NCBI GenBank assembly: GCA_039808765.1
Contig: JBDHTQ010000004.1
Coordinates: forward strand, 74,287 to 138,286
DNA from: Bdellovibrionales bacterium
GTDB lineage: Bacteria; Pseudomonadota; Alphaproteobacteria; UBA2400
Length of the DNA: 64,000 bases
Direction of reading: 5' to 3'
Shown here: in pieces, positions 3,991-50,154 of the stretch
Layout: each line of letters begins with the position of its first letter
How positions within the stretch are numbered: the first letter of the stretch is position 1
Program-made: the position numbers and the translations under genes
The notes under the pieces: model-generated
What the model saw: only the letters and a program-made list of their open reading frames with translations
Told to the model about the DNA's origin: nothing
Database searches by the model: none

Positions 3991-3997
3991 GGGAAAA

Positions 3998-25171: not shown

Positions 25172-25612
25172 TTAACGATCGTCGCCGTCGGCATCCACAT
25201 CGTTTTCGTTGGATGTCCCCATTCCTTCATCGGATGTCGCATCCTCATCGGCTTGGGGTGTTGTTGTGCCTTCTTCCATGGTTGTGGCTTGCTCGGCAGC
25301 AGGAGCGGGTGTTACAGGTGTTGCTGCGGTCGATTCGGTTGATGGGGCAGGGGCTGCTTCCATCATTTTATTCGATGTATCTTCTTCTGTAGTGGTTTGA
25401 GGAGCAGTTGTTTCAGCTGGAGTGGTTTCTTCAGTTCCTGCAGCAGGCGCAATGCTGTTGTATGCTGCGCCGGTAGAAGCGGTTGTTTCAGCCGCCTTGT
25501 TCGTTGAAGACTGGGTCCACAGCCAACCGGTTGCAATCACTGCAGCCAGAACGATCAACGGCACAATCAGTTTGCCGTTACCTGAGGATTGATTGGGGGT
25601 ATTGTTCGCCAT
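25172..25612 (-). CDS. Hypothetical membrane-anchored acidic low-complexity protein
   Basis: An N-terminal TM segment (LIVPLIVLAAVIATGWLW) is followed by a T/A/E/P-rich disordered acidic tail. Confidence 0.3.
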   Translation of the reverse strand: MANNTPNQSSGNGKLIVPLIVLAAVIATGWLWTQSSTNKAAETTASTGAAYNSIAPAAGTEETTPAETTAPQTTTEEDTSNKMMEAAPAPSTESTAATPVTPAPAAEQATTMEEGTTTPQADEDATSDEGMGTSNENDVDADGDDR

Positions 25613-25784
25613 TGAATCGTACTCCGAAAATGAGCCAGAAAATCTTCTCAGAAATCTGGGCTGTGGTTATCTATGTAAACACCTTAGCGTGAGAGAGAGA
25701 CGAGGGCAATGGGCCTCTTGCCGCAGTGTCTGTTAATTTTGACAGGGGTATAGGTTTGTGCAGAAATGCTTTTCAATCAACCGT

Positions 25785-31926: not shown

Positions 31927-32589
31927 CTATAGAATTTTACATCCAAGAATACTGATGCTTAAGCCAAACTCAAGGCTGCTCACCAAGTTACCATTAAAAC
32001 GCATATTTCCTGAGCAGTCGACAGAGAAAGTGCCAAGCGGTCCGAAATTGGCAACCGCACGACCATTTCCGATGCCAAAGCTTACTTTACGCAAGGCGCT
32101 GGCCAGACCATCTGTCCACATTTCCGGACACATTAGTGAGCTTAAAACGGCAGGCAGTTTAAGGTCTACCCGAATAAGATCCATTAAGGAGTTAAAAGGT
32201 CCAGCCCCTGAAAGGGTAAAGGAAAGGCTGTTAAGAAGGGTTGTGATCACGCCGAAGGGGTCAAGAATGCTCAAAAAGAGACTAAGAATGTTGTTAATCG
32301 CCGAAGTAATTGCATTTTTGAGACGTGTAGCAAAAGAAACACGCCAAACGTTTGCGTTGGTTGTTGCGCAGTCGAACTGCTGCATAGAGCTAGGCGGACG
32401 ATGCAGTGCATAAATAATATCGTCGCTTTGCTCGATACCACGGTTAGCAGCATCGCTCATTTCTGTGAACAATTGCTCATCGCATCCGTCAGCGCCAATG
32501 GCTGGAGCTGTCTGCGCGTGAGAAATCTGAGGTGATAACAGTGTTAAGGCCAAAGCCAAAAAGACGCATGAAAAATAACGACCGAGCAT
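31927..32589 (-). CDS. Hypothetical secreted protein
   Basis: A clear Sec signal (MLGRYFSCVFLALALTLLSPQISHAQTAPA) is followed by a Cys-containing domain. The gene is divergent from the T4SS-like operon. Confidence 0.35.
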   Translation of the reverse strand: MLGRYFSCVFLALALTLLSPQISHAQTAPAIGADGCDEQLFTEMSDAANRGIEQSDDIIYALHRPPSSMQQFDCATTNANVWRVSFATRLKNAITSAINNILSLFLSILDPFGVITTLLNSLSFTLSGAGPFNSLMDLIRVDLKLPAVLSSLMCPEMWTDGLASALRKVSFGIGNGRAVANFGPLGTFSVDCSGNMRFNGNLVSSLEFGLSISILGCKIL

Positions 32590-32813
32590 GTGACTCCTCC
32601 TAGCTTAGTTAAGGTTTAACATAAACTTCGCCTTGCTGCTAGCTAAGAATGTTAAAAATTCTCCTATTGAAGTTTAACGGGTGGGCGATTAAATAAAAAT
32701 TAATTTATTAAAAGAGTGCATGAACCTTTAAATATTGGCTATTTTCTCTGAGAACGTGTAAAGGGTTGGGGTGGTGTTGCGTCTTTTTTGCATCAGAATC
32801 AAGGGGAGAGACA

Positions 32814-33899
32814 ATGTTTTCTTTTAAAATGTTCTCCGATTTTCCCCCCTGGATTTTATCGCTTTTGGCGCGTAAAAAGGGTGATACTGGTCATAAGTCT
32901 GGTCGTATTGCACGTCCGCCGCGCAAAATTTCAACGCACAGCCTTCGGCGGGTGGAGCAATATAGAAAACAGCCACCGAAGGGTGCTTTAGCCACGGTGC
33001 GCTCTGCTCGACGCCATGCTTACCAGATAAAAGAGGATCGCGGGCAACCAAAAAAAGTACCTGTTTCTCCCGATTCACCGCGCGTAATGGCGGGAGGTGT
33101 TTTGCCTCAACATGTGCGTTTACGTAACGACAAATTCGATGTCGAAATGCTGGGATTGATTGCGGATGCTCAACAAATTGAGAATAAGCTCGTTTGGGAT
33201 TCTGAAAAAATTACCTCTGAAATCAGTGAAGACCTGAAAGCCGAGGATGAAGGTGTTATTGGTCCCGCTGAAATGGCACAACGGATGGAGCGGGAGCATT
33301 CAGAGCAATATAAAAAATTCTCCATACGACATGAAAATTTTGAGCGGGCGTTAAAAGACGTTTCTCGTCCGGACCCTGCGCAAACGCTTTCTCCGCGAGT
33401 ATCCGACGAGAAGGGGTTACGTGAGCGTAAGTTCGGCTCAAAAATAAGTGAGAGGGTTTTTCCACCCGCGGAAGCTGGTGATCGTAATCACCCAAAAATG
33501 AAAGACAGTGCAACAGTAAGCCTTCAGCGTGTATGGCAATCGCGTGCACAGAAGAGCATGCTTACGCGTCTCGATAATCAAATGAAAAATATAAAGGATA
33601 AGTTAAATGTTCTGCGGGGTGATTTTGACAACGAACTCCATATTAAAAAAGAAAATTATCTTGCGCAGGCTGTGCAGGATGTCAACATGATTGCTGAGCA
33701 AACAGTGCCGAGCACACCATCAGAGGCACGCCCTCAGGTTGACATGGACGCAGATAAAGAAAGGAGGCGCCAAGAGGCCTATTTCAGGCGTCAGCGGCAA
33801 CTGCAAAAAATTAATGCTGCGCCTCAGCCGAAGCCTCCGAAATTTACTTCCCCGGACTCTGCGAAGCGTCGTAAAAAAGATGATGAGACGTCAATCTGA
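32814..33899 (+). CDS. Hypothetical highly charged (K/R/E/D-rich) protein, likely cytoplasmic
   Basis: About 360 aa, strongly polar and charged, with coiled-coil stretches. It is the first gene of the co-directional T4SS-like operon. Confidence 0.35.
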   Translation: MFSFKMFSDFPPWILSLLARKKGDTGHKSGRIARPPRKISTHSLRRVEQYRKQPPKGALATVRSARRHAYQIKEDRGQPKKVPVSPDSPRVMAGGVLPQHVRLRNDKFDVEMLGLIADAQQIENKLVWDSEKITSEISEDLKAEDEGVIGPAEMAQRMEREHSEQYKKFSIRHENFERALKDVSRPDPAQTLSPRVSDEKGLRERKFGSKISERVFPPAEAGDRNHPKMKDSATVSLQRVWQSRAQKSMLTRLDNQMKNIKDKLNVLRGDFDNELHIKKENYLAQAVQDVNMIAEQTVPSTPSEARPQVDMDADKERRRQEAYFRRQRQLQKINAAPQPKPPKFTSPDSAKRRKKDDETSI

Positions 33900-33904: not shown

Positions 33905-34681
33905 TTGCATATGGGGCTGGAGGATCGCATGATTGATAGCGACACAGCGGGTTGGTTTGGTGCATTTTCCGGTGTTCTGATTGGCTTAACGCTCGGCAGT
34001 TTTGTCGGTATGGCCAGTTGGCGATGGCCGTTGGGTAAAAACTTTATTGTCCCCTCTTCGTGTCCTGCGTGTCTGCATCGTCTTACGCTGCGTGAGCTTA
34101 TTCCTGTTTTTAGCTGGGTAATTCAAAGAGGGCGTACACGATGTTGTGATCGCCCGCTTTCGTTGCGCTATCCCGCGGTCGAAGCATTGAACGGTATTTT
34201 GCTCGGTATCGTGGGTTGGAATGCGGGCTTGGGTACAGCGTTTATTTTGCTTGCGATGCTGTTTTGCGCTTTGTCAATTGGTGCATTGATTGATCTTGAA
34301 TGGAAAATTATTCCAGACGGAGTAAATTGCGCGGTGGCAATTTTGGGGGTTTGTTGGGTGGTTTTTCTGGCACCACAAGATTGGGGTTATCGCTTGATCA
34401 ATGTTCTTCAGTGTGGAAGCTTGGGTGTTTTTTTGGCGTATTTTTATTCTAAATGGCGAAAAAAGGATATGCTGGGGTGGGGAGATGTCAAGCTTATGGC
34501 AGCTTCTGGCTTTTGGTTTCCGCCGCAGTGGGTTGGTTTTTACTTGTTTTTTGCGGCGCTACAGGGCATCGGCCTGTCCCTTTACTGGCGACGACGCACG
34601 GGCGAGGCTGAATATCCCTTTGTTCCCCCGCTTGCTGTATCGCTTGCGGTATTAATGATCTGGCAAACATTTGTTGATTAA
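33905..34681 (+). CDS. Prepilin peptidase (A24 family, with an N-terminal zinc-ribbon domain)
   Basis: The N-terminal Cys tetrad is C-P-A-C...C-C (PSSCPACLHRL...RTRCCDRP). A polytopic membrane domain follows, carrying the conserved acidic residues (LIDLEWKIIPDG..., GWGDVKLMAA). Confidence 0.65.
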   Translation: MHMGLEDRMIDSDTAGWFGAFSGVLIGLTLGSFVGMASWRWPLGKNFIVPSSCPACLHRLTLRELIPVFSWVIQRGRTRCCDRPLSLRYPAVEALNGILLGIVGWNAGLGTAFILLAMLFCALSIGALIDLEWKIIPDGVNCAVAILGVCWVVFLAPQDWGYRLINVLQCGSLGVFLAYFYSKWRKKDMLGWGDVKLMAASGFWFPPQWVGFYLFFAALQGIGLSLYWRRRTGEAEYPFVPPLAVSLAVLMIWQTFVD

Positions 34682-34735
34682 GTGCAAGTGGTTACCCCTC
34701 TCGACGAAGAGGGAAATATACGGTAAATCTAACTT

Positions 34736-35464
34736 ATGAGTTCAAAAAGCGTGTCACCTCCCGTTAGTTTGGTCAAAAAATCAGACCATTTGGTCCTCCC
34801 TCCGAAAGCGGAAGAGCGCCATTCCACAGTAGATGGACTGGCGCTTGTCATGGCGCGCAATAATTTTTATGTTTTTCACTATCACAAAATTTTGTACATC
34901 GTTTTGGCTCAATTGGCTGGAATTATCATTTTGGTAATGATTTTGTTTCGGTTATTTGAATTTACCGATTCGCGGGATTATTTTTTTCCTGTTCAGCAAG
35001 ACAGCACATTGATCATCGAACGGCCTCTTTATGAGTCCGTTTATAGTGACGACGAAATGCGTCGGTGGGTGGAAGAGGCGACCACCACCACACTCACCTT
35101 TGGTTATTACGATTATCAGATGCGCTGGCAAGATTCGCGCGGTTATTTTACGCCCCAGGGATGGGCCAGCTACAATCGTGCGATGGAAAATGTTTTAAAC
35201 TACATTGGTGTTGGCATAGAAAACTCTGCCAAGAAAGTCATTCTGACCCGTGTTCATCCAGGCAAAGGGGCAGAAATCAAACGGCAGGGAATTTCTAATG
35301 GGGTTTATACGTGGGATTTTACGATCAGTTTGGATGTGACATATTTTGGTACAAGTGAACAAAGTCGGGAGACGTGGAACGTCGACCTTAGAATTGTGCG
35401 CATGCCTTCTAATATCAGTCGCTATGGTCGAGGGATCAAGTGGTTAGTTGCGTTGAAGGAATGA
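34736..35464 (+). CDS. Bitopic VirB8/DotI(IcmL)-like T4SS inner-membrane component, paralogue 1
   Basis: Short cytoplasmic N-terminus, one TM segment (IVLAQLAGIIILVMILF), then a periplasmic domain of about 170 aa. The family-level pattern (FGYYDY...R..FTPQGW...) is shared with the three downstream paralogues. Confidence 0.4.
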   Translation: MSSKSVSPPVSLVKKSDHLVLPPKAEERHSTVDGLALVMARNNFYVFHYHKILYIVLAQLAGIIILVMILFRLFEFTDSRDYFFPVQQDSTLIIERPLYESVYSDDEMRRWVEEATTTTLTFGYYDYQMRWQDSRGYFTPQGWASYNRAMENVLNYIGVGIENSAKKVILTRVHPGKGAEIKRQGISNGVYTWDFTISLDVTYFGTSEQSRETWNVDLRIVRMPSNISRYGRGIKWLVALKE

Positions 35465-35467
35465 TCT

Positions 35468-36205
35468 ATGGCGTTTAAGCTTTTCTCCTCTTCCTCTTCT
35501 TCTGCCGTGCGTAAAGACAGCGAGGTTTTTGCCAAGCCTTCCGATATGCTGATGTCTGTGCAGAGTCAGCAGGATTTTTATTCCATCAGCTATCGTTTTC
35601 TGGTTAAGACCTCACTCTTCTTGGGAACAATCGTTATTGTTTTGATTGTACTCTGTTGTGGAATTGTTATTTTTTCGGCGCCGCATGATCGTTTTTTTAC
35701 CGCATCAGTAGATGGGCGGGTTGAGCGCGTGGTGCCCCTCAATATCGCAACCGCACCGACGGCTGAGATGGCGCAAAAAGTGCGAGATCACATTTCACGT
35801 GCGCTTAATTTTGGTTATCTTGACTATGAGCAACGTCGCGCCGAAAATTTATCGCCCTTTACAGCTTCTGCGTTCGAGAAGCTACAGGATCAGACATTGT
35901 TGCCGTTTGGTTTGCGCGACATGCTCAAAAAGATGCTCGTTTTTAAGACGTCACCGTTAAAATCTCCGGGTGTGTCATTGGTTGCCAATAATGTAGATCA
36001 AAACTTTACCATGCAATGGATTTTCGACGTTCCCGTTAAAATTGAGGTGAGTTCGGATGATCCAAGCGTGAAAGATGCTAATCGACAAGATATCGTCGTG
36101 ATTCGTGTTCTTGTGAAGCGTTCGGCTGATATTGACACGCCTGGCGGGTACATCATCTGGGACATTCAGGGGATAAAAATTATTAATCATGGAGGGGCAT
36201 CATGA
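35468..36205 (+). CDS. VirB8/DotI(IcmL)-like bitopic protein, paralogue 2
   Basis: Same architecture (TM segment LFLGTIVIVLIVLCCGIVIF) and a shared motif (LNFGYLDYEQRRAENLSPFTASAF). Confidence 0.4.
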   Translation: MAFKLFSSSSSSAVRKDSEVFAKPSDMLMSVQSQQDFYSISYRFLVKTSLFLGTIVIVLIVLCCGIVIFSAPHDRFFTASVDGRVERVVPLNIATAPTAEMAQKVRDHISRALNFGYLDYEQRRAENLSPFTASAFEKLQDQTLLPFGLRDMLKKMLVFKTSPLKSPGVSLVANNVDQNFTMQWIFDVPVKIEVSSDDPSVKDANRQDIVVIRVLVKRSADIDTPGGYIIWDIQGIKIINHGGAS

Positions 36206-36978
36206 CTGATTTGAGCTCTTCTGCCAAAAAGCCTGCGGATGTCCAAAAGAAAGCATCAGCAAATGCTACGGTAGCGAAAAAGAATTCGGCCCGTACAGCC
36301 GCCGGCAAAAAAGGGACTCAAAAGCCCGCGTCGAAAAGTGGGCTGAAAAAGTTTGTGTTGCGTTTGAAGGAAGCGCTTTACAGCCAAACACTGCAACCTG
36401 CTGATGTCTCGATGCGGCAGACTTTTTTGGCAACCATCGGGGTTGTGATTTTGATTGCGGGTATTTTTGCTTTTGTTTTTGGCAATAAGCGCGCTGATTT
36501 GCTTTTTGCCAGCCATAGCGGAAAGCTAACGCCCATTCAGTATGTTGACACACCAAGTATTAGTAATGAGGCTGTGATCAACTGGGCCATGGCCGCATTT
36601 ATGGATATCAAAAACTTTAATTTTAACAACATTGATGAACGATTTAATAGCGCATATCGTTATTTTACGCCTGAGGGATGGGACTCTTTCGTGGCCGCAC
36701 TCTACAAGAGTGGTATCATTGACGCCATCAAAACCAATAAACAGTACGTGAGCGCTGTTCCAGGAGGGGCACCAATTATGCAGTCCGAAACAGATGATCC
36801 GGGACATTATTCATGGGTTGTACAAATTCCGTATCAAATGACCACGGTTTGGCGTGATAGTAATGGTACCAATCGGGAAAAAACAGATAGTAAAGTCGCG
36901 ACGATTACGGTGGAGAGTATTCCCACAAACACCTCACTGGCGGGTTACCCCTTCGGGATATCAAGGATAAACGAATAA
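36202..36978 (+). CDS. VirB8/DotI(IcmL)-like bitopic protein, paralogue 3
   Basis: Same architecture (TM segment ATIGVVILIAGIFAFVF) and motif (YRYFTPEGWDSF). It overlaps the upstream gene by 4 nt. Confidence 0.4.
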   Translation: MTDLSSSAKKPADVQKKASANATVAKKNSARTAAGKKGTQKPASKSGLKKFVLRLKEALYSQTLQPADVSMRQTFLATIGVVILIAGIFAFVFGNKRADLLFASHSGKLTPIQYVDTPSISNEAVINWAMAAFMDIKNFNFNNIDERFNSAYRYFTPEGWDSFVAALYKSGIIDAIKTNKQYVSAVPGGAPIMQSETDDPGHYSWVVQIPYQMTTVWRDSNGTNREKTDSKVATITVESIPTNTSLAGYPFGISRINE

Positions 36979-37652
36979 TGACTTTTTCAGGAAAACCCGT
37001 GAGCTTGGTTAAAAAAACCGATATTCAGCGTAATCGGCAATCTTATTTCCGGCTAAACAATAATTTCTTGCGTGATCGTGCGCGTTTTATGGTGGTTCTA
37101 AAGTTTCAGCAATATTTGACTGTGATTCTGCTCTGCATTCTCTTTGGCCTGCTTTTTGGGGTTGTCAGTACCAATTATCGGGTTTTTGCGACAAGTAATA
37201 ATGGAACGCTCGTCCCTAACACGCCGATCGATCAGGAAGTACAGGAAAGCGTGTTGATGACATGGGTTGTAACAACGGTTCTGGAAGCTTCAACGATTGG
37301 ATTTTTCGATTATGAGCTAAGGTTTCAGCAGCTTCGAAGTGCATTTACCGATCAGGGATGGGAATCCTACAACCGCTTTTTACGAACAAGTTTTAATAAA
37401 AAAACCTCTATTCGTGCAGAATTGGAAAATGGCCATATTTTGCTGCAACCCAAAATTTCAACCCCGCCACAAATTTTGCGACGTGGGCTGGTGGGGGGGG
37501 TTATGACGTATCATCTTCAGCTTGAGATTGTTATTCGCGGCGTGTGGAGCGAAGATATGCGAATCCCCAAAATACTGGATTTGATTGTTGAAAGGGTGAC
37601 ACCGGAAATAAATTCAGATGGTTTGGCGATCTCACAGTGGAGAATCTCTTAA
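36978..37652 (+). CDS. VirB8/DotI(IcmL)-like bitopic protein, paralogue 4
   Basis: Same architecture (TM segment LTVILLCILFGLLFGVV) and motif (GFFDYELRFQQLRSAFTDQGWESY). Its start overlaps the upstream stop. Confidence 0.4.
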   Translation: MTFSGKPVSLVKKTDIQRNRQSYFRLNNNFLRDRARFMVVLKFQQYLTVILLCILFGLLFGVVSTNYRVFATSNNGTLVPNTPIDQEVQESVLMTWVVTTVLEASTIGFFDYELRFQQLRSAFTDQGWESYNRFLRTSFNKKTSIRAELENGHILLQPKISTPPQILRRGLVGGVMTYHLQLEIVIRGVWSEDMRIPKILDLIVERVTPEINSDGLAISQWRIS

Positions 37653-37778
37653 TTTCTTTGTAGATTGTTAAGAAGTCCTCGTCACAATCGGTTGGTCGAG
37701 CTTAAAGTGTCGCATAAAAGCAACGGCCTGACACTGAGTTTATCTTGAAGGTTTCCTGAGAAAAGTTTAAACCTTATA

Positions 37779-38786
37779 GTGTGTTGTGGAGTGCTTGAGA
37801 TGTTTCAGAAACGGTTTTTTCTCCTTTTGCTTATGGTTGTTGCGCTAGCGAGCAGCGTGGCTCAGCCTGTTTGGGCGTCTTCGAATATGGGGCGAGGGTC
37901 GTCGAGCCAAGGCGGAGATGTTGGTTTGGAAGGTTTTGTTGAGCCACCACAAATCAGTCAGGAAGAAATTCTTAGAAAAGCCAAACAGATGGCGTTTGAT
38001 AACGCTCTGGATGGAGCAATGCCCCTCTCGCCTGAGCAGATTGCGGCTATTATTCAAAAAATGTCAATCGTGCAGGAAGCTGCTGCGCCAGCCATAGCAA
38101 ATCCCGTGCGCCCTAAGCCAGTCCTAAAGGTTGAAACAATTTCGCTTGACCCTGGTACTCAGCCCCCTGTCATCAAGGTGGCTGCGGGCTATGTGACGTC
38201 GGTTATGATTCTTGATGCCACCGGGGCGCCGTGGGAGATTAAAGATATTGCGTATGTTGGCAAATTTAACGCGGCCATTCCCAACAGTGCGCCGCATACG
38301 TTTCGAATTTTGCCCCTTAATCGCTTTTATGAGGGCAACTTGACGCTGCAGTTGGTGGGGCTTGCAACACCTGTTACCTTCCGTCTTGAGGCCGGTGAAG
38401 ATGAGGTTTATTACCGTTATGATGTGCGGTTACCTGTTATTGGTCCCAACGCTAAGGCCCCGCAATTTAAGTCTGCAAACAGCATGGTGGCCGGCGATTC
38501 TGTTATGATGGCGGTTTTGAGCGGTTATCCTCCCGCTTCGTCAAAGCGGTTGCAGGTCTCTGGGCTTGATGATCGTTCGGCGGCTTGGGAGATTAATGGT
38601 CAAATTTTCTTGCGCACACCCCACACCTTGCTTTCGCCTGCGTGGTCTGGCAGCACGACATCGGGGGATGGTACCACAGTTTATGCAATTCCCGATACGC
38701 CTGTGCTGCTTCTGTCAGATCAGGGGGTTATGGTTCGTGCACGCTTAAGTCGCCCTAAAGGTATTGTTGAGGGAGAAGCTCAATGA
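37779..38786 (+). CDS. Secreted VirB9/DotH(IcmK)/TraN-like T4SS outer-membrane-complex protein
   Basis: Sec signal (LLLLMVVALASSVAQPVWA) followed by a beta-rich sequence (VIKVAAGYVTSVMILD..., LTLQLVGLATPVTFRLEAG). Its position between the VirB8-like and VirB10-like genes matches the conserved B8-B9-B10 / dotI-dotH-dotG order. Confidence 0.4.
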   Translation: MCCGVLEMFQKRFFLLLLMVVALASSVAQPVWASSNMGRGSSSQGGDVGLEGFVEPPQISQEEILRKAKQMAFDNALDGAMPLSPEQIAAIIQKMSIVQEAAAPAIANPVRPKPVLKVETISLDPGTQPPVIKVAAGYVTSVMILDATGAPWEIKDIAYVGKFNAAIPNSAPHTFRILPLNRFYEGNLTLQLVGLATPVTFRLEAGEDEVYYRYDVRLPVIGPNAKAPQFKSANSMVAGDSVMMAVLSGYPPASSKRLQVSGLDDRSAAWEINGQIFLRTPHTLLSPAWSGSTTSGDGTTVYAIPDTPVLLLSDQGVMVRARLSRPKGIVEGEAQ

Positions 38787-40120
38787 GTAATACATCCGAT
38801 TTTAATGAAACACCCGGTAATTCTCGTTACCGTCGCCCGAACAAGGCGAGCAGTCTTTCTCAGATGTGGCAAAATCCAATCGTCAAGCTTGTTATCGTTT
38901 TGATGGTTTTGGGTGGGGCTGCTCTGGCTGGAATGAAGTTCCTATCGGGGGGGCGTGATGAACAGGAAACAGTTTTGGCAACGCCTGGTTCTGGCGGTGG
39001 TGCTGCAAAAGTAGGTAACCAAATAACACCCGAGTATCAGTTGGCTGTTCAGCAAAGTGATATTCGTAACGCTGCAGAAGCGCGTGCAACGGGTGATACT
39101 GCTGTGCCAACACCTTTGCAGACTGCTGTATCATCACCAGAAGTTGACACTGACATGAATGCCGCTCAAGGGGAGGATCCCATTCGTCAGTTTGAAGCCA
39201 TTTTGCAGAAGGATGGACAGGGAAAGAAGAGTAATTTGCCTCCTCCACAAACAACGCAGCCGGCTGTTCAGGTTCCGCCTGAAGTTTTAAAGCAGCTTAC
39301 GGAAGCGATGGCTAATCAGATTGGTGCGATGATGAAGACGTGGACACCTCCCACAATGTCTCAGGTTACATCGAACATCAAGGAAGAGGACATTTTGATG
39401 CGCAATACGCCGAAGGAAATTTCGGTCGACAGTTTGAAGCCTCTGACCGAGTCTAAACCGGTTGTGACTGCGGGTAGTGTTTATTATGGGCAGATGATTA
39501 TTGAAGCCAATTCTGACATTCCGGGCCCGATTATGGCGCAAATTCTCACTGGACCTTTGGCCGGAGGGCGTGCAATCGGTCAGTTTCAAACGTTTCGCAA
39601 CCATCTTTTGATTCGCTTTGATACGGTTTCACTTGGCACAAATCAGATGAGCGTGGATATTATCGCCCTTGATCCCAATACTACTCTTGGTGGGATTGCG
39701 AGCGAGGTTGACCCGCGTTACTTCCAACGTGTTTTGCTGCCTGCTGCTGCTGCGTTTATTTCTGAATATGGTCAAGCGCTTTCAGAGCCGACCAGCACGG
39801 TAAGTGTTTCAGGGACGGATGGTACCAACATCTCTACTTCGACCAATGAGCGCGATGCAAAAGATGCGATGTATGCTGGTATTGGTGCTGCATCAGAGAA
39901 GATCGAGCAATTCGTGACAGAAGAAGCATCGTCAATTAAGCGCCTTGTTCGCGTTGGCGTGGGCACGCCAATCGGCATGTTTTTTGTGAAGCCTGTTTGC
40001 GGCTTTAGCGGGCAGTGTAATGCGGGGTCAGCGGTAACGCCTGCTTCTTCGCCTTCCCCTTCCCCCGTATCTGTGAGTGGTGTTGTTTCTCCGACATCGA
40101 CATCTTATATTCAACGTTGA
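38783..40120 (+). CDS. VirB10/TrbI/DotG-family T4SS protein
   Basis: N-terminal TM segment (IVKLVIVLMVLGGAALAGM), then a Pro/Gln-rich linker. The C-terminal domain aligns block-by-block to VirB10/TrbI: AGSVYYGQMIIEANSDIPGPIMAQI, GGRAIGQF, LIRFDTVSLGTNQMSVDIIALDPNTTLGGIASEVDPRYFQRVLLPAAAAFIS. Confidence 0.65.
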   Translation: MSNTSDFNETPGNSRYRRPNKASSLSQMWQNPIVKLVIVLMVLGGAALAGMKFLSGGRDEQETVLATPGSGGGAAKVGNQITPEYQLAVQQSDIRNAAEARATGDTAVPTPLQTAVSSPEVDTDMNAAQGEDPIRQFEAILQKDGQGKKSNLPPPQTTQPAVQVPPEVLKQLTEAMANQIGAMMKTWTPPTMSQVTSNIKEEDILMRNTPKEISVDSLKPLTESKPVVTAGSVYYGQMIIEANSDIPGPIMAQILTGPLAGGRAIGQFQTFRNHLLIRFDTVSLGTNQMSVDIIALDPNTTLGGIASEVDPRYFQRVLLPAAAAFISEYGQALSEPTSTVSVSGTDGTNISTSTNERDAKDAMYAGIGAASEKIEQFVTEEASSIKRLVRVGVGTPIGMFFVKPVCGFSGQCNAGSAVTPASSPSPSPVSVSGVVSPTSTSYIQR

Positions 40121-40130
40121 GGTTTTAGTG

Positions 40131-42086
40131 ATGAGAGCTTTTGGTAAACGCGGCGGATCAAATAATCAAAACGACGAGGGATTTGAGGACGAAAACCTTC
40201 CCCCGGAAGATTATTATCAAGAGGAATTTTCTGCTTCTACGCTCGATTCTGAACAAGGCGATGATGACTGGGATTCTTTGTCTGATAATGAAGATTCTGT
40301 CCTCTCTCAAGCTGAGGAAATGAAACATCGTTCCTCGCCCATTGCGCGCATGATTCCTTGGTTTGCCTTGGGTGTGATTGTCGCGGGGGGAATTGTTTAC
40401 TACTTGACGGCCAATATGGGTTCCGGTGTGATTCAGCCGGGAAGTGCTATAACTGCTACCCCTGTTGCCCCGTCAACCAATACTACAGATGAACAATTTG
40501 CCAAACCTATGACATCGCGCGCAACGCCCAGCAGCACAAGTGGTGGGGCAGCGTCAACATCTTCTGGTTCTCCCGAGACGTCAGCATCAGTGTCCATGCC
40601 GGCCTTGCCATCGGATACTGCTTCTGCAAGTGCTCAAACCACCCGATCCGGCTCGTTTATCCCCTCTGACGACGGCACAATTAAATGGGTAGAGCCTGTT
40701 CAATCTCCTGACCAGACGGCCAATAAGGGCAATGTTACGGAGACAGGGACAGCGACGTCTGCATCTACAACAGCTACTGCTGCCACTAACACACCCAGTT
40801 CGGTAACAGAGCAAACTGAGACATCACAACCGCAAACAACGCCGATCATTGGATCACAAGAAACAGTGGAAACCCCGGTTACCACACCGCCTGATTTTTC
40901 TAAGCAGATGGCTTCTATTAATTCCTCATCTGTGACGGATAAACCGGTCACGCCAAACTCACAAAATTCTTCAGCTGCGCAGGAAACTGTCCCATTAAAA
41001 GAACAAACCACGCCGACCGCACCTGCGACACCTAAAAATATTTCGACGGCCAATGACCAACATGCTTCTGAAACAGCTGTTGCCGTGACGCCCTCGACGT
41101 CATCTTCTGACGCCGCGACAAACGAGCGTTCGCCTGAGTCGCTCTTGATGAGTGCGATGAAGTCAACAGCAGATCAGGCAAAAATCCCGCCTGTCGAGAC
41201 GCCTGCAATGACGGCAACAACCGCTCCCACGACGGCCCTTCCAGCAGCGGCTATTCCAACAACGGCAAATGTTAAACCGACGGGCGCTTCTTCTGTACCA
41301 TCTTCATCAGAAGCACCGATACCCAGTGCTGTCACGTCGTCGGGGGAGGCTTCGTCTGCTACATCGGCTCCCTCGCCGTCAGGATTAACGTCAACCTTGG
41401 TTCCGACGTTAGCACCAACAACATCGGTTACAGCACCTGTTTCATCTCAGGGGCTGGGCGTAAGTTCTTCCATTTCGTCGTCCGTCGATGCAACAAAAAC
41501 ACCATCAGCTTCAACTGAAGATGTTGATGATCTCAATTCACGCATGGCTGTGCTTGAGCAGCGATTAGGTGACCTGACGCAGGCATTGGATAAAGTTGCT
41601 GTGCAGAGTACCTCAAAATCATCGGCTACCTCTGAACAAAACACTCAAGCGATGGCTCAGGCTGGTGCATTAAACACTCAGCTTTCTGCACAAATTAAAT
41701 CGCTGCAAAGTGAAATGCAGTCTCTTAAGTCGCAGGTAAAAGATCAAAGCCGGGCGGCCGTGCCGTCATCTGTCACAACATCACCTGTTGTAACATCGGT
41801 TGAAAATAAACAGCCACCCAAAACAATTCCGCTTTTGCCATCCAAGCCCCAGACGGAATCACACAAAGTGGCAACTGCATCGTCCCCTGCTCAAGCCAAT
41901 TCTGCTAAAGCGTGGGAACTGCGTGCGGCGCAGGCTGGCGAGGCTTGGGTAGCGCGTAAAGGCTCAGACAATTTGCAGCATGTCACGGTCGGTCAGTCCG
42001 TGAGTGGTTTGGGTCGCGTGACCAGTATTCGTGAGAAAAATGGGGCATGGGTTGTCGTGACAACAGGCGGTACGCTGCGTCAGTAA
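40131..42086 (+). CDS. Ser/Thr/Ala/Pro-rich bitopic protein with a C-terminal coiled coil and a small beta domain, possibly the DotF/IcmG/TraP analogue
   Basis: TM segment (IPWFALGVIVAGGIVYYL) followed by about 380 aa of S/T/A/P-rich low complexity. A coiled coil (LEQRLGDLTQALDK...LQSEMQSLKSQVKD) and a compact C-terminal domain follow. The gene sits immediately after the VirB10-like gene, as dotF follows dotG. Confidence 0.3.
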   Translation: MRAFGKRGGSNNQNDEGFEDENLPPEDYYQEEFSASTLDSEQGDDDWDSLSDNEDSVLSQAEEMKHRSSPIARMIPWFALGVIVAGGIVYYLTANMGSGVIQPGSAITATPVAPSTNTTDEQFAKPMTSRATPSSTSGGAASTSSGSPETSASVSMPALPSDTASASAQTTRSGSFIPSDDGTIKWVEPVQSPDQTANKGNVTETGTATSASTTATAATNTPSSVTEQTETSQPQTTPIIGSQETVETPVTTPPDFSKQMASINSSSVTDKPVTPNSQNSSAAQETVPLKEQTTPTAPATPKNISTANDQHASETAVAVTPSTSSSDAATNERSPESLLMSAMKSTADQAKIPPVETPAMTATTAPTTALPAAAIPTTANVKPTGASSVPSSSEAPIPSAVTSSGEASSATSAPSPSGLTSTLVPTLAPTTSVTAPVSSQGLGVSSSISSSVDATKTPSASTEDVDDLNSRMAVLEQRLGDLTQALDKVAVQSTSKSSATSEQNTQAMAQAGALNTQLSAQIKSLQSEMQSLKSQVKDQSRAAVPSSVTTSPVVTSVENKQPPKTIPLLPSKPQTESHKVATASSPAQANSAKAWELRAAQAGEAWVARKGSDNLQHVTVGQSVSGLGRVTSIREKNGAWVVVTTGGTLRQ

Positions 42087-42104
42087 CCCTATTGCAGAAA
42101 AAAA

Positions 42105-42149
42105 GCACAGCCATCTGGTGAGCGTACCACGGTCACCAGATGGCTGTGC
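42105..42149 (+). terminator. Perfect 17-bp inverted repeat (GCACAGCCATCTGGTGA-loop-TCACCAGATGGCTGTGC) just after the stop of the DotF-like gene
   Basis: Read directly from the sequence. It is preceded by an A7 run and followed by a weak T-rich stretch. It could be a terminator/attenuator or an RNA stability element. Confidence 0.35.
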
Positions 42150-42412
42150 AGCTTTGTTCGCATCATCACTTTCGTGTGTTTATGGTAAATCCTGAGTAGA
42201 TAGAATCGAAGAAGCCATCTTTGGCGCCGTATTTGCGTTAAAAATATAAAATAGAGCATTTCTACCTTTTGGAGATGCGCTCTAGCCCTGCAATTGACTC
42301 TACACCATCCGTGTTTTTGATTTTTTGCAGTAGGGGAAAATGATTGACTTCAATACGGCATTCGTCCAGATTAAGGCCACAAAGACTTTTTTATACTTAG
42401 AAGGAGATATCA

Positions 42413-42901
42413 ATGAGCAATTTAGGAGAAAAATTTAAAGAATCGGCTGAAAAGTTCAAAAATTACATCCAAGGAAATAAAACGACAGTACGTATGTTTT
42501 GTGGTGTGTCCACAGCTTTTCTTTTCGGAGCAGCTTTAGATCATACCCTGATGTGGGCAAGTATGCTTGCACCAACTTCATTAACACTGCCTAGCGCAAC
42601 CATTAGCGTTGCGTTGGGTTTCGGCGCTGCTCGCCAGATTGATAAGGGGTTAAAATTATTGCCAAATGATGATAATAACAGTATTTTAGGCTCGCCAAAA
42701 GCAGGATTTATAGATGCCGCTGGATTCGCCGTATTGTCAGGCATGGCAACGCATATGGGTTTTGCGTTATCGTTGTGTGAGTTTCCAAAAGCATCTGTAT
42801 TCGGCCTCCTTGTAGGGGGAATTTGTGGCGCTACCGCAGTTGCTTTGTTTCGTGATAGTGCGCACGCGCTGCGCTCAAAAGTTTCTCGAGCAATGCATTA
42901 A
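42413..42901 (+). CDS. Small polytopic membrane protein in the T4SS-like operon (about the size of IcmC/DotE)
   Basis: 162 aa with 3-4 hydrophobic helices and an AGGAG RBS upstream. No family recognised. Confidence 0.3.
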   Translation: MSNLGEKFKESAEKFKNYIQGNKTTVRMFCGVSTAFLFGAALDHTLMWASMLAPTSLTLPSATISVALGFGAARQIDKGLKLLPNDDNNSILGSPKAGFIDAAGFAVLSGMATHMGFALSLCEFPKASVFGLLVGGICGATAVALFRDSAHALRSKVSRAMH

Positions 42902-43216
42902 TTTTATATGGTTCAATTTTTTCAGGCGAGATATTGTTCAGCGTGATTTGTGAGGAAGCGTTCTGGATCGATTATTGTTTGTTCCTGTTTTTCCTGTGCC
43001 TGGCATTGGTGGCTGCATTTTTGCGTGCAGACAAAAATGCCAGGTTTTTACGTTTTTAAGAAAACAAACCGATTGCGAGAGTGAAATTTTTGGTTAAGGA
43101 CTCGTTTTTTAGCGAATTTGTTCTAAATTCTCGTAAAATTTATCGATTAATTAAAGTAATGGGTGTTCATTTGATCATTCTAACCTGTTATAATTGCAGG
43201 ATAAGATAGAGGAGAT

Positions 43217-44191
43217 GTGCCTATGGATTGCACTAAAAAAGATTTTTTCGCTTCAAAATCAAATGGATGCCTAACGTTCAGTGTGGCTCTAATCAGCGTG
43301 CTGTTCTTTGCTTTTCCTGCATTCGCTGATGAAGATTTGGGCGCAAGCATTCTTAGTGTCGTTAATTCGGGTTACAGTAATGTTCCAATTATTCTGACGT
43401 ATTTCTCTTACATTGCGGGGCTTATGCTTGGTCTGATCGGTTTAAATAAAATAAAAACCCATTTCGTTGGTGGGAATCAGCCTCTTTCTGGTGGATTGTG
43501 GCATCTGGTTGGCGCATCGCTGCTAATTTCTTTGCCCACAGCATGGGGCATGATTGTTCGTTCTCTCAAAACGGGTTCTGTATCGGGTTCCACGCGGGCT
43601 GTGGCCGATTTAAGTGGGGCAGGTGGGGGCACAGGGAGCTTATCGCTTGACCAAATGATGATCGACTTGGTAACCAATATCCAAGCACCGATGGGCTACC
43701 TTTTGTGGAGCTTGAGTGCAGTATTGGGACTATTCTTCCTAACCACCTCATTTTTGCGAATGGCCAAAAACTCTGGTCAGGATGGACCGCGTAACTCACT
43801 GGGTGCGGGAACACTCAGCCGAGTAGTTATCGGCGGGTTACTTCTTTCATTCTCGGCGACGGCAGACATTGTAACGACCACCCTGTTTGGTACCAATGTT
43901 CTTAAATTTTCATCAATGGATCTGAGCGGTTCGGTAGATGCGAATGCGTTAGACCATATTAATGCGACCATTTCGGCTGTGTTGGTTTTCGTTCAGATTC
44001 TTGGGTTCATTGCTTTTATGCGTGGTTTTTTGATGCTTCGTGCCCAGTTTGACGGTGGTAACGGAAGTACAGCGGCTGCTTTTACCCATATTATTGGTGG
44101 AGCGGTGGCGTTTAATATTTCCTCATTTATGGGGATTATGGAAAAAACGTTCTGTGCAACCGCTGGGTGTAGCGTCTTTGAATTTAACTGA
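43217..44191 (+). CDS. Polytopic membrane protein with a signal peptide, last gene of the T4SS-like operon
   Basis: 324 aa. A signal-like N-terminus (FSVALISVLFFAFPAFADE) is followed by about 6 TM helices and Gly-rich loops. A strong terminator follows. Confidence 0.3.
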   Translation: MPMDCTKKDFFASKSNGCLTFSVALISVLFFAFPAFADEDLGASILSVVNSGYSNVPIILTYFSYIAGLMLGLIGLNKIKTHFVGGNQPLSGGLWHLVGASLLISLPTAWGMIVRSLKTGSVSGSTRAVADLSGAGGGTGSLSLDQMMIDLVTNIQAPMGYLLWSLSAVLGLFFLTTSFLRMAKNSGQDGPRNSLGAGTLSRVVIGGLLLSFSATADIVTTTLFGTNVLKFSSMDLSGSVDANALDHINATISAVLVFVQILGFIAFMRGFLMLRAQFDGGNGSTAAAFTHIIGGAVAFNISSFMGIMEKTFCATAGCSVFEFN

Positions 44192-44212
44192 GGTTCCATC
44201 TTTTCCAAAACT

Positions 44213-44236
44213 GGGGGCTTCGGCCCCCTTTTTTTG
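44213..44236 (+). terminator. Rho-independent terminator ending the T4SS-like operon
   Basis: GGGGGCTTCGGCCCCC hairpin followed by TTTTTTT. Confidence 0.55.
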
Positions 44237-48292: not shown

Positions 48293-49300
48293 TTAAAGTT
48301 CTGGGAACATCACATCTGCCATATATGCTGCCACATTACGGGGTCGGCCGATGGCGGGCATGTGGTGCATGGCGAGACCGGGGTTGGCATTAATCTCGAT
48401 GATCGCATGGGTAACCGTAGTCTGATCGACGGTAATGTCCGGAGTAAGAAAATCGATCCCTACACAGGGAAGACCATCGAATGTCTGCAGTGCTCTTTTT
48501 GCAATGCTCAACACCGAGGAATGAATCACATCTGTCATGTCCGTTGATACGCCGCCTTGAGCTAGATTAGAAATGAGTCGCAGATAGATTTTTTCACCTT
48601 TATTCGGGACGTGATCAAAGTTCAGGCCCTTCTGCTGCAGGTAATTCAGCACGATATCGTCGAGGGCTATGGGGCAGAGGGCACTACCCTCTTTCTTTTT
48701 GACAGACTCCCGCCGGAGACTTTCCTGCTCAGCTAGAGCTCGGATATTGTTTTTGCCGTCACCTATTACATGCGCGGGATCGCGAAGTAGAACTGCGTAG
48801 TCTCCCTTGGTGGTGATGAAGATGCGGTACTCGTTGCCGTGAATATGCCGTTCGACGATAAAGAAAGATTGCTCTCCTGCCTGATGGAGAAGGGCGTAAA
48901 TTGCATCCTGCAGCTGTTCTCTGTTTTCGAGGCCGGAGCGAACTAACTCGCCATGCGAGCCGGTATTCGGTTTGACCACAAGCGGGAAGCCGATTTCGTC
49001 GCCATAATTCAGCGCTGCCTCGATATCGCCGCCCGTGAAGATTCGTCCCTCGGGCACATACAGCCCACTCTCTTCCAGAAGTAATTTAGCCGTGTGTTTG
49101 TCCGCCGCTAACGAGGACGGCAGATAAGGCACGATTTTGCTAGCCCGGTCGAGCAGATACTCAGTCGTTCCTTTATAAGACACCCGCATAAGCTCGAGAT
49201 TGTAGTCGAGCGAAGTGACATTCGCCCCGCGGCGCACGAGTTCTTCAACCAGGAGACGCTGATTGGTATGAAGACAGCTGAGATCAAGTGTACTCGTCAC
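48293..49300 (-). CDS. ATP-grasp ligase (RimK / LysX / graspetide-ligase-like)
   Basis: 335 aa with a GTG start. ATP-grasp blocks present: FPLVVKPNTGSHGELV, HIHGNEYRIF, IIEINANPG. Confidence 0.65.
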   Translation of the reverse strand: MTSTLDLSCLHTNQRLLVEELVRRGANVTSLDYNLELMRVSYKGTTEYLLDRASKIVPYLPSSLAADKHTAKLLLEESGLYVPEGRIFTGGDIEAALNYGDEIGFPLVVKPNTGSHGELVRSGLENREQLQDAIYALLHQAGEQSFFIVERHIHGNEYRIFITTKGDYAVLLRDPAHVIGDGKNNIRALAEQESLRRESVKKKEGSALCPIALDDIVLNYLQQKGLNFDHVPNKGEKIYLRLISNLAQGGVSTDMTDVIHSSVLSIAKRALQTFDGLPCVGIDFLTPDITVDQTTVTHAIIEINANPGLAMHHMPAIGRPRNVAAYMADVMFPEL

Positions 49301-49417
49301 TTACTGCGGACGAGGCCGACCAGTGACGGGACGCGGATCAACGTCAAGTTTGCGCGGCGAACGGCCACGGGCAGGTCGGCTGCGATAATTTTCAGTCGGA
49401 TTATTATCTTCAGACAT
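49301..49417 (-). CDS. Candidate 38-aa Pro/Arg-rich peptide gene (possible RiPP precursor/substrate), below the 60-aa ORF-track cutoff
   Basis: Translated by hand: MSEDNNPTENYRSRPARGRSPRKLDVDPRPVTGRPRPQ*. An SD-like GAGGTG lies 5 nt upstream of the ATG. The TAA stop abuts the GTG start of the ATP-grasp gene, and the ORF fills the gap between the methyltransferase and ATP-grasp genes. Confidence 0.4.
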   Translation of the reverse strand: MSEDNNPTENYRSRPARGRSPRKLDVDPRPVTGRPRPQ

Positions 49418-49476
49418 TTGGCACCTCACTCTACAGGCAATTCTAGCATCTGGCAAACGGGTTTTGCAAGCAGAAA

Positions 49477-50154
49477 TTATCCTTCAAAAATAAGCACGTT
49501 ATGACCGATTTCAGCAGTGTTAACTTTTTGGCCGACCGCTTCGCCCCATATACCGCCGATGATGTGGCGAGCATGGGTAATATCCCTGAACTGAAAGCTC
49601 GTTGCCAGCCGGGCGGTGATCCGAAAGCCGGCTACGTCCTGAAGCCAGGCGTTATAAGCGATTGAAACGGGGATTTTTTCTCTTATCTCTTCAAACATGC
49701 CGCTGGCATCGTTCTCAACCAGAAAAATTCTACCGCCGGGATGTAAAGAGGCGCGGACGCAGTTCAGAATATCTAGTCGCTTCGGCTCACTGCTAATGGT
49801 ACCAAGCATCCAGCAGGCGAGCGCGATATCGTATTTTCCGAGGTTGGGATTTTCAGCAGCATCGGCGTGAATGAATGAGATGTTTCTAAAGTTTCGGGTC
49901 TGCGCCCGCGCTATCGTCAGCTGCGCCTCAGCAGCGTCTAGCCCACAGATATGCTGCGCATGGGGAGCAAAAAGTCTTAGATATTTTCCGGTGCCGCAGC
50001 CGAGATCAAGCATGGTCTTGTTTTCGATGTGGGGTAATAGCCAATTAAAGACCTGGCCTCGGGCATCTTCAGCTGCGCAAAACTCTTCATAAAGATTGGC
50101 CTTCTGGTAATAGACTTCTGATTTTTCTTGAAGGTTGTTCTTGGAATAGCTCAT
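49477..50154 (-). CDS. Class I SAM-dependent methyltransferase (start trimmed to MSYSKNN, an ATGA overlap with the upstream stop)
   Basis: SAM-binding motif I LDLGCGTGKYL plus a motif II/III acidic loop. Length about 225 aa. Confidence 0.65.
   Translation of the reverse strand: MSYSKNNLQEKSEVYYQKANLYEEFCAAEDARGQVFNWLLPHIENKTMLDLGCGTGKYLRLFAPHAQHICGLDAAEAQLTIARAQTRNFRNISFIHADAAENPNLGKYDIALACWMLGTISSEPKRLDILNCVRASLHPGGRIFLVENDASGMFEEIREKIPVSIAYNAWLQDVAGFRITARLATSFQFRDITHARHIIGGIWGEAVGQKVNTAEIGHNVLIFEG

Follow-up and report, generated by a model that had tools for sequence, protein, structure and literature searches.

The systems most similar to the locus analyzed here are the Dot/Icm system of Legionella pneumophila and the Tra/Pil system of IncI1 (R64-type) plasmids. 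The locus is a block of ten genes within a 64-kb stretch of DNA (contig JBDHTQ010000004.1; hereafter, the window), and the part of a type IVB (Dot/Icm, IncI-like) secretion system (T4BSS) that it encodes is the envelope-spanning core. In Legionella, the genes of region II are arranged in the order icmL-K-E-G-C-D-J-B. Counterparts of DotI, DotH, DotG, DotF, IcmC/DotE and DotO are found in the window and those of DotN, DotB and IcmT in its relatives; as in Legionella, the genes are chromosomal, and no relaxase is seen nearby. The differences from Legionella are several: the window belongs to an alphaproteobacterium with a presumed bacterial-predator background, its DotG has 445 aa compared with 1048 aa, four full-length DotI paralogues stand where Legionella has DotI and DotJ, the operon holds a prepilin peptidase, and DotO and DotN are detached from it; furthermore, IcmS/W/R/Q, DotU/IcmF and effectors were not identified.

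With IncI1, the window shares the positional series TraM/N/O/P/Q/R/T/U, a DotG of TraO-like length and a link to a type IVb thin pilus, seen in the PilN/O/Q/R/S-type genes of relatives and in the PilU-type peptidase of the window. Unlike IncI1, the system is chromosomal, no relaxase, nikAB/oriT or type IV coupling protein (T4CP) is seen, the identity is low (27.5% for TraU), the pil genes do not lie alongside in the window, and a shufflon is not seen. The closest plasmid-borne DotO homologues (38-43.7% identity) come from megaplasmids with the MPF_I type of mating-pair-formation system (Bosea pBSY19_1, the Methylorubrum extorquens AM1 megaplasmid, Rhizobium) and from Xanthomonas citri plA, which has the same DotI-to-IcmB order. 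Unlike the window, these plasmid loci carry T4CP, toprim, partition or replication genes, and they are farther from it than the Micavibrionales chromosomal homologues (57-74%). The rvh system of Rickettsiales, which are host-dependent alphaproteobacteria, is a chromosomal, scattered type IV secretion system (T4SS) with duplicated VirB8, VirB9, VirB4 and VirB6; the likeness is by analogy only, and rvh is of the VirB type (T4A) whereas the window has type IVB (T4B) families. The same lineage and system class as in the window appear in the MacSyFinder survey of Needham et al. (2022), where pT4SSi systems in seven marine Micavibrionales genomes are mentioned in one sentence, which does not touch on architecture, a link to predation, DotI expansion, dispersal or a thin pilus (PMC9418006).

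The secretion block and its detached ATPase

The block extends from window position 33905 to 44191, with its terminator reaching 44235, and comprises ten genes on the + strand. The first-pass annotation had counted eleven; an eleventh co-directional open reading frame (ORF; 32766-33899) lies outside the block and stops 5 nt before it. The intergenic gaps are, in order, 54, 3, -4, -1, 147, -4, 10, 326 and 315 nt. Thus, the description of the genes as tightly packed or overlapping holds through the eighth (DotF-like) gene but not around the ninth (162-aa) gene, where the packing is looser, whereas the strong terminator at the end of the block was borne out as a hairpin followed by seven T. The features of the block, and the ATPase gene located 14 kb from it, are as follows (HMM, hidden Markov model; TM, transmembrane).

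33905-34681, + strand: A24 prepilin peptidase/N-methyltransferase, putative PilU equivalent, first gene of the block (Pfam A24_N_bact 86.1 bits, Peptidase_A24 53.3 bits)
34736-35464, + strand: DotI/IcmL paralogue 1, VirB8-like, bitopic (PF11393 68.5 bits; NCBIfam IcmL_DotI E = 1.6e-23)
35468-36205, + strand: DotI/IcmL paralogue 2 (PF11393 48.7 bits; one TM segment, 42-77)
36202-36978, + strand: DotI/IcmL paralogue 3 (PF11393 94.9 bits)
36978-37652, + strand: DotI/IcmL paralogue 4 (PF11393 64.7 bits; one TM segment, 37-70)
37800-38786, + strand: DotH/IcmK/TraN, VirB9-like outer-membrane and periplasmic ring subunit (PF12293, T4BSS_DotH_IcmK, 222.4 bits)
38783-40120, + strand: DotG/IcmE/TraO, VirB10-like, 445 aa (TrbI 41.5 bits, cut-off 35)
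40131-42086, + strand: probable DotF/IcmG/TraP-family bitopic protein, 651-669 aa (family HMM from 69 loci, 154 bits)
42105-42149, + strand: near-perfect hairpin with 21-nt arms and a 3-nt loop, directly 3' of the DotF-like stop codon, without a T-run
42413-42901, + strand: hypervariable near-orphan small membrane protein, 162 aa (one homologue, in the sister contig L090)
43217-44191, + strand: probable IcmC/DotE/TraQ-family polytopic membrane protein, N-terminal half TraR/DUF6750-like (family HMM 267 bits)
44213-44235, + strand: intrinsic terminator closing the block, GGGGGCTTCGGCCCCC then T7 (GGGGGC-TTCG-GCCCCC + TTTTTTT)
17314-20367, + strand: DotO/IcmB/TraU, VirB4-class ATPase, 1017 aa, 105 nt downstream of fliI

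Profile searches assigned the four DotI copies, DotH and DotG to T4B families, with scores much higher than chance would give. All four DotI proteins exceed the gathering score of PF11393 (T4BSS_DotI_IcmL; 27.7 bits), and each has a single TM segment (residues 49-79 in paralogue 1), in agreement with the bitopic VirB8/DotI topology that had been read from the translations. Among PDB sequences compared with phmmer, paralogue 3 matched L. pneumophila DotI (3wz4) at E = 4.1e-16 and R64 TraM (3wz3) at E = 1.1e-5. The secreted protein that precedes the VirB10-like protein is DotH: it carries a signal peptide in addition to the PF12293 domain, and its AlphaFold model (pLDDT 74.6) has L. pneumophila DotH (7muc_AH) as the top PDB match (Foldseek E = 1.9e-24, 35% identity), followed by VirB9 proteins. 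DotG is bitopic, and its VirB10/TrbI C-terminal domain, already recognized in the first-pass annotation, matches PDB IcmE/DotG (7muc_AG) at E = 3.1e-17. In NCBIfam, this protein scores 123.6 bits with DotG and 81.5 bits with TraO, both below the cut-offs of these full-length equivalogs; its length is TraO-like, and in the DotG model (1008 positions), the alignment is confined to positions 744-1004, which pair with residues 156-403 of the protein. The family matches thus confirm the B8-B9-B10 (dotI-dotH-dotG) order. They also support a T4B rather than a VirB/Trb T4A apparatus, given that the T4BSS_DotI_IcmL and T4BSS_DotH_IcmK models match, whereas no match to the VirB8 or CagX families was detected in Pfam and, on the T4A side, the shared TrbI/VirB10 domain alone matches. 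A family of 24-nt direct repeats was observed inside DotI paralogues 1, 3 and 4 (35142-35165, 36659-36682 and 37339-37362); it encodes the (Y)FT..GW motif that the paralogues share and reflects their common ancestry rather than a regulatory function.

DotO has no match in Pfam, NCBIfam or PDB sequences, and its AlphaFold model has a pLDDT of 48; its identity rests on sequence comparison. With tblastn, the alignment with annotated IncI1 TraU covers 98% of the protein, with 27.5% identity (E = 1e-91); the phmmer score with IncI TraU is 354.8 bits, and the identity to the 'IcmB' of the Xanthomonas plasmid is 38%. This end-to-end alignment with TraU and IcmB upholds the earlier suggestion that the distant ATPase of about 1000 aa is DotO/TraU. 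The Walker A motif is QPGAGKS (residues 492-498) and the Walker B motif ICYDEF (approximately 806-811). DotO is 74% identical to its counterpart in L008 ('Micavibrio sp. UBA2400'; L-numbers denote loci of relatives that were compared with the window), which adjoins the T4B operon of that genome, and 57-60% identical to those of the wider clade. A promoter-like site (17275-17302) was observed between fliI and DotO (the pair occupies 15865-20367), and in about 24 relatives (e.g. L014, L015, L029, L059), flgK, flgL and flgE flank the T4B locus. The linkage of T4B and flagellar genes is recurrent.

The long Ser/Thr-rich protein encoded next to DotG had been proposed to be DotF from its position. 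From its acidic N-terminus, it continues with a TM segment at approximately 70-96, a long spacer rich in Ser, Thr, Pro and Ala and a coiled coil, and about 55 aa at the C-terminus make up a conserved domain. The family HMM scored 66.5 bits with the Xanthomonas 'IcmG-like' protein, whereas 20 shuffles of matched composition stayed below 6 bits, and it scored 14.3 bits with IncI TraP; the L008 orthologue matches NCBIfam IcmG_DotF at E = 1.6e-6 (28 bits, cut-off 200), and in 68 related loci the gene follows DotG. Because the family HMM, the NCBIfam match of the L008 orthologue and the conserved position agree, this weak but convergent evidence suggests that the protein belongs to the DotF/IcmG/TraP family. 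Among PDB sequences, DotF was matched at E = 4.6e-5 but was outranked by coiled coils, a profile of the C-terminal domain alone yielded no DotF match, and no homologues were retrieved when the last 220 aa served as the query. Matches of the DotF-like HMM at two other ORFs of the window (25175-25666 and 3764-4792) were rejected as low-complexity artefacts.

Of the two further membrane proteins that had been noted, one appears to belong to the IcmC/DotE/TraQ family, and the other is a near-orphan without a family. The former matches NCBIfam TraQ with 46.7 bits (residues 146-311; cut-off 80) and DUF6750 with 20.6 bits (residues 6-119), its L008 orthologue reaches 64.3 bits with TraQ against the same cut-off of 80, and the family scores 39.9 bits with Xanthomonas 'IcmC-like', 19.8 bits with IncI TraQ and 28.4 bits with TraR. 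The separate small TraR-like gene of relatives is absent from the window; the small TraR/DUF6750 protein of one relative has a weak match to the TrbC/VirB2 pilins. The 162-aa protein has no Pfam or NCBIfam family, and among 1.84 billion representatives, one true homologue was found (32% identity). This homologue occupies the same slot (7703-8197) in the sister contig L090, where the comparison gave 36% identity, whereas the neighbouring proteins are 78-97% identical, and the DNA flanking the cassette (window 42092-42880) is approximately 84% identical to L090. Two hairpins, at 42105-42149 and 43015-43040, bracket this cassette; candidate roles of the former are those of a terminator, an attenuator or a processing site. 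The cassette could encode an exclusion, immunity or specificity determinant.

The prepilin peptidase at the head of the block has the motifs GWGD (191-194) and IIPDG and an N-terminal CxxC. Among the loci compared, an A24 peptidase adjoins T4B genes only in the subclade of the window (L001, L003/4, L005/7, L008, L009); the Bosea megaplasmid likewise pairs an A24 peptidase with a TraU-like gene. In L017 and L036, the T4B genes are accompanied by an R64-type (type IVb) thin-pilus set, namely, a secretin lipoprotein, PAP_PilO (107 bits), a GspE/PilQ-like ATPase, a T2SSF platform protein and PilS-type prepilins, and in L003, a PilS-type prepilin is encoded 4.5 kb from the operon. None of the PilS pilin, PilN secretin lipoprotein, PilO, PilQ ATPase and PilR platform genes is in the window, and the prepilin leader motif does not occur in any window ORF. 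Because thin-pilus genes sit beside T4B genes in relatives, the peptidase fits the role of the PilU equivalent of an R64-type thin pilus that would be encoded elsewhere. In L008, the closest relative whose locus is contiguous, the match to the A24 peptidase (5815-6671) is divided between two frames, which reflects either a frameshift or pseudogene or an assembly error.

Chromosomal setting, relatives and gene order

The block lies between a HIT protein, a phasin and ClpS/ClpA upstream and metK, an SDR protein, folD and tRNA-Ala downstream; the flanks named in the first-pass annotation (HIT/phasin and metK) are among these. Given the flagellar genes, cheY/cheZ, mreBCD-PBP2 and recO in the remainder of the window, together with the other housekeeping genes around the block, the window is chromosomal. 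In GC content (43-51%), the block does not differ from its surroundings, and there are no direct repeats of att-like quality flanking it. An Rfam scan of the window detected tRNA-Ala only, with no riboswitch ahead of metK. Neither an integrase nor a relaxase or T4CP was detected among the window ORFs scanned against Pfam and NCBIfam, and the earlier statement that no relaxase, coupling protein, DotA/B/C/D or pilin is visible in the window stands for these ORFs.

To place the block among its relatives, a DotH profile was searched against one genome per GTDB species, which yielded 154 confirmed DotH loci; the best 80 were kept for comparison. Nearly all of these best 80 of 154 come from metagenome-assembled genomes (MAGs) labelled Micavibrio sp., M. 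aeruginosavorus, Bdellovibrionales, Pseudobdellovibrionaceae, Rhodospirillaceae or Alphaproteobacteria; the Bdellovibrionales labels are explained by NCBI taxonomy, which places Micavibrio in that order. The closest relatives of DotH are 62-76% identical, and those of DotO 57-74% overall, compared with 40-43.7% for the DotO homologues on Hyphomicrobiales megaplasmids (Bosea, Methylorubrum, Rhizobium). With the DotO of L060 as the query, at least 120 DotO clusters showed at least 76% identity, several of them named 'IcmB [Micavibrio ...]'. The best inference from these comparisons is a Micavibrionales-like lineage; the previous attribution to Hyphomicrobiales is not demonstrable, the nearest DotH and DotO proteins being those of Micavibrio, Bdellovibrionales and Alphaproteobacteria MAGs.

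In relatives, the canonical locus reads (GcrA-like)-DotI (1-2 copies)-DotH-DotG-DotF-like-TraQ-like-small TraR-like-DotN/IcmJ-DotO, and DotO lies within 10 kb of DotH in 29 of the 80 loci. The annotated IncI plasmid has the order traO-P-Q-R-S-T-U-V-W-X-traY and the annotated Xanthomonas MPF_I plasmid DotI-DotH-DotG-IcmG-IcmC-x-HNH(DotN-like)-x-x-IcmB. Thus, the order DotI-H-G-F-(C/Q)-(D/R)-(J/T)-(B/U) is common to both plasmids and recurs among the 80 chromosomal loci, with HMM scores of the positional pairs with plasmid genes above those of shuffled controls, and the gene order of the window matches that of more than 70 chromosomal loci in MAGs labelled Micavibrio, Bdellovibrionales or Alphaproteobacteria; in the window, the series ends after the TraQ-like gene. 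The subclade of the window (L001, L003, L007, L008, L009, L090) is distinguished by four DotI paralogues with positional orthologues (that of paralogue 1 is found in L003, L007, L008 and L009) and by the A24 peptidase that heads the operon. Each DotI paralogue having its positional orthologue, the duplications are older than these species.

Within this subclade, the series breaks at different points. In L008, it is contiguous through DotO and is followed by a PilT/TraJ-like ATPase; in L003, it ends after the DotF-like gene, where prfB/lepA follow; and in the window, it ends after the TraQ-like gene, before metK, with DotO relocated near fliI. The flanking genes also differ among close relatives: HIT/phasin and metK in the window, trmE and prfB/lepA in L003, and bipA and RNase J in L005. 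Other T4B components are present in relatives, namely, DotN (82.9 bits), DotB (343 bits from a truncated ORF, vs. 219 bits with TraJ) and IcmT/TraK (96.6 bits, above the cut-off), and in L014, L015, L017 and L053, a TcpQ/STN-domain protein accompanies the DotB and IcmT genes.

The match of gene order and families to IncI1 and to the Xanthomonas MPF_I conjugative plasmid raises the question whether the block is the mating-pair-formation module (MPF_I) of an integrated conjugative element (ICE) or ex-plasmid, serving DNA transfer between bacteria in the manner of IncI1 Tra/Pil. The nearest plasmid homologues, on the Bosea megaplasmid, adjoin a T4CP and a toprim protein, whereas none of the 80 loci was found to have a T4CP within 10 kb of DotH. 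In a tblastn search with DotO, 3784 plasmid records matched, of which 3222 are typed conjugative, and the thin-pilus association is a hallmark of IncI1; however, the system was found in at least 154 species representatives, which belong essentially to a single lineage, and its varied housekeeping contexts and break points in close relatives imply long residence in the chromosome. Although nine ICE-like islands were described in the M. aeruginosavorus ARL-13 genome paper (PMC3189940), the window lacks, among the features looked for, a relaxase, a T4CP, an integrase, att-like repeats and a GC anomaly, and the Micavibrionales systems were classed by MacSyFinder as pT4SSi, i.e. without a relaxase, in the sentence that the survey devotes to them (PMC9418006). 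On balance, we regard conjugation as an unlikely function of this system.

When compared with L003, L007 and L008, synonymous sites are saturated (proportion of synonymous differences, pS, 0.70-0.88; of nonsynonymous differences, pN, 0.18-0.50), and every ORF is intact. In the sister contig L090, the proteins are 85-97% identical except for the DotF-like (78%) and the 162-aa (36%) proteins. The pS and pN values indicate that the genes are under purifying selection. The saturated synonymous sites, intact ORFs and differing break points together point to an ancient, maintained chromosomal system that is being dispersed by rearrangement and that appears to be neither a recent island nor decaying.

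A decaying, non-functional remnant of a once complete T4BSS is accordingly hard to reconcile with these data, and we consider it very improbable. The dispersal of the genes, the absence of several components from the 64-kb window and the peptidase gene of L008, apparently split over two frames, could be taken as signs of decay, but all ten ORFs and DotO are of full length, and the orthology is kept paralogue by paralogue between proteins that are 30-74% identical. A second alternative is a repurposed or reduced apparatus that has ceased to secrete and employs the envelope core alone, for example, as an adhesion or pilus-anchoring scaffold or as a device for DNA uptake or release. The operon is indeed shorter than those of relatives, as it lacks DotN and the small TraR-like gene and DotO has moved away; a prepilin peptidase heads it, and the fourfold DotI expansion and the lineage-specific hypervariable gene suggest remodelling. 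However, gene relocation occurs in functional T4SSs as well, as in the two-region layout of Legionella and in Rickettsiales rvh, DotO was kept intact and highly conserved, and DotB, IcmT and DotN are retained in relatives, so that this alternative, too, has little probability in our view. Of the three possibilities left by the first-pass annotation (dispersed, partial or repurposed), the first is supported, because relatives keep DotO, DotN and the TraR-like gene contiguous, which the window genome does not, whereas the other two are not indicated, given the components carried by relatives and the purifying selection.

Proposed function of the system

We infer, with moderate confidence, that the locus belongs to a chromosomally fixed, vertically inherited T4BSS of a Micavibrio-like alphaproteobacterium, which most likely functions as a contact-dependent protein translocator. 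Protein translocation is favoured over conjugation because of the lack of a linked relaxase or T4CP, the long chromosomal residence, the lineage-wide presence, the scores that lean toward Dot/Icm and the pT4SSi classification in the survey. The lean toward Dot/Icm over IncI1 is seen for DotG (123.6 vs. 81.5 bits for TraO), DotI (4e-16 vs. 1e-5 for TraM) and DotB (343 vs. 219 bits for TraJ). We judge protein effectors to be likelier cargo than DNA. The most interesting candidate target is a prey bacterium during epibiotic attachment; the other candidate is a eukaryote.

By analogy with Legionella, DotH, DotG and DotF, together with DotC and DotD lipoproteins encoded elsewhere, would build the outer-membrane cap and the periplasmic rings, the DotI paralogues would form an inner-membrane collar, and the IcmC- and IcmD-like proteins would reside in the inner membrane. 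DotO hexamers would dock below, with DotO and then DotB energising transfer, and a DotL/M/N coupling complex would recruit the substrates. The peptidase would mature PilS-type type IVb pilins encoded elsewhere, and the resulting thin pilus might steady the contact with the target cell, as in R64 liquid matings, such that substrates could be pushed into the contacted cell.

Several observations weigh against this interpretation. With respect to the machine, DotN, DotB and IcmT were not found in the 64-kb window by HMM and phmmer searches of the six-frame translation, and DotA/TraY, DotC/TraI, DotD/TraH and DotL/TrbC had no Pfam or NCBIfam match among the window ORFs scanned; DotM is not in the window either. 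A long DotG (approximately 1000 aa) with a central repeat region is absent, the window protein being of 445 aa; the DotF-like protein of the window itself has no direct match in Pfam or NCBIfam; and the memberships in the DotF and IcmC families are to be taken as weak, their scores lying below the curated cut-offs. With respect to function, the MPF_I systems found on megaplasmids of Alphaproteobacteria and on enterobacterial plasmids are conjugative, no effector, IcmS/W chaperone or translocation signal was identified, and ankyrin proteins at one related locus would suggest eukaryotic targets. Finally, the presumed predatory lifestyle of the window organism derives only from how related MAGs are labelled, and at least one Micavibrionales MAG has been proposed to be photoheterotrophic (PMC9933672).

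A more specific version of protein translocation is conceivable, but we hold it only tentatively, as somewhat doubtful. Here, the T4BSS and an IncI-like type IVb thin pilus would make up a conserved attack organelle of Micavibrio-like epibiotic predators, in which the pilus takes hold of the prey cell, the T4BSS delivers effectors into this other bacterium by injection, and the 162-aa protein serves as a self or sibling exclusion (immunity) determinant. If so, this would be the first T4B system with bacteria as natural protein targets. For the killing and draining of prey from outside by Micavibrio-type predators, a T4BSS offers a concrete and testable candidate machine; the alternative consequence would be an unsuspected association of this lineage with eukaryotes. 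Either way, chromosomal Dot/Icm-type systems extend beyond intracellular Gammaproteobacteria, with implications for the wider evolutionary picture.

The literature searched contains no dedicated study of a T4BSS in Micavibrio. The genome paper on M. aeruginosavorus ARL-13 reported no evidence of a type III or type IV system (PMC3189940). The gene table of the same paper (Additional file 4), however, lists GMV_383 as 'icmO' (the DotL coupling protein; 2583 bp), which is expressed in both the attack and the attachment phases; in a search of that table by annotation words for T4B genes, 'icmO' was the only one found. The table also lists a 2994-bp hypothetical gene (997 aa, the length of DotO in Micavibrio-labelled MAGs) among fliP, fliM, fliL and flgG, which is a lead to DotO by size only. 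GMV_1650/1651, encoding a small membrane protein and an HNH protein, were considered as a T4B cluster of ARL-13 and rejected, as the surrounding genes do not fit. M. aeruginosavorus being cultivable with prey, and with 'icmO' in its gene table, genetic tests are feasible. In a 2025 review of contact-dependent predation, Micavibrio is mentioned and papers on type IV secretion are cited, but in separate passages that never link the two (PMC12428579), and in a 2024 review, possession of a non-conjugative T4BSS is presented as a hallmark of deep-branching intracellular Gammaproteobacteria, with no connection to Micavibrio (PMC11338181). What is known already is that automatic annotation recognises the main components and that one survey noted the system class in this order; the lineage-specific traits are the four DotI paralogues, the operon-borne PilU-type peptidase, the gene dispersal and the hypervariable cassette.

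Neighbouring genes and other regions of the window

Two genes immediately upstream of the block are of uncertain membership:

32766-33899, + strand: highly charged protein of 361-377 aa, directly upstream of the peptidase, no family
31927-32589, - strand: secreted Cys-containing protein of 220 aa, divergent neighbour, no family

Counterparts of the charged protein (L003 5309-6190, L007 3257-4342, L008 4624-5454) are weakly related and have in common a C-terminal P-x-L-K-P...(D/E)ET tail; the protein is fast-evolving, and the tail is reminiscent of C-terminal secretion signals. The 220-aa protein has homologues in L003 (89 bits), L007 (33 bits) and L008 (12.5 bits), each in the corresponding place relative to the operon.

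At other loci, candidate cargo genes were observed beside the T4B genes. A multi-copy family of secreted proteins with a Cys-rich N-terminus (72 members of 390-650 aa in 26 loci) is encoded on the opposite strand just upstream of DotI, with up to four tandem copies per locus (e.g. L065 254-7828, L053 5004-8768). This family is absent from the window and has no match in Pfam or NCBIfam, apart from a weak match to TraW (E = 0.014) that was not repeated against IncI TraW; the proteins of this family may be effectors or else a structural component that has escaped recognition. Around the T4B locus of 'Micavibrio sp. Chal_Metagen_Bin5' (L071 1-6315 and 18943-20028), several ankyrin-repeat proteins are encoded, and a DUF6782 putative metallopeptidase is encoded upstream in L071, L078 and L083 (L083 6440-7534). 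The ankyrin proteins and DUF6782 have the look of eukaryote-directed or effector-like cargo.

Three further regions of the window stand apart from the secretion genes. At 11590-14726, four ORFs (191, 370, 172 and 195 aa) without a family lie beside an OmpR-type response regulator that precedes fliI and DotO. Between 54000 and 64000, the GC content falls to 38-44%, and eight ORFs of 115-484 aa without a Pfam match were found together with a sulfotransferase and an alpha/beta hydrolase; the ORFs of this region have no homologue in the 80 related loci, and the region could be an island or hold lineage-specific cargo. On the - strand at 48293-53910, an ATP-grasp protein, an S-adenosylmethionine (SAM) methyltransferase, an 804-aa kinase/radical-SAM/DUF3419 fusion and a B12-binding radical-SAM enzyme form a cluster that may represent a natural-product or lipid-modification pathway.

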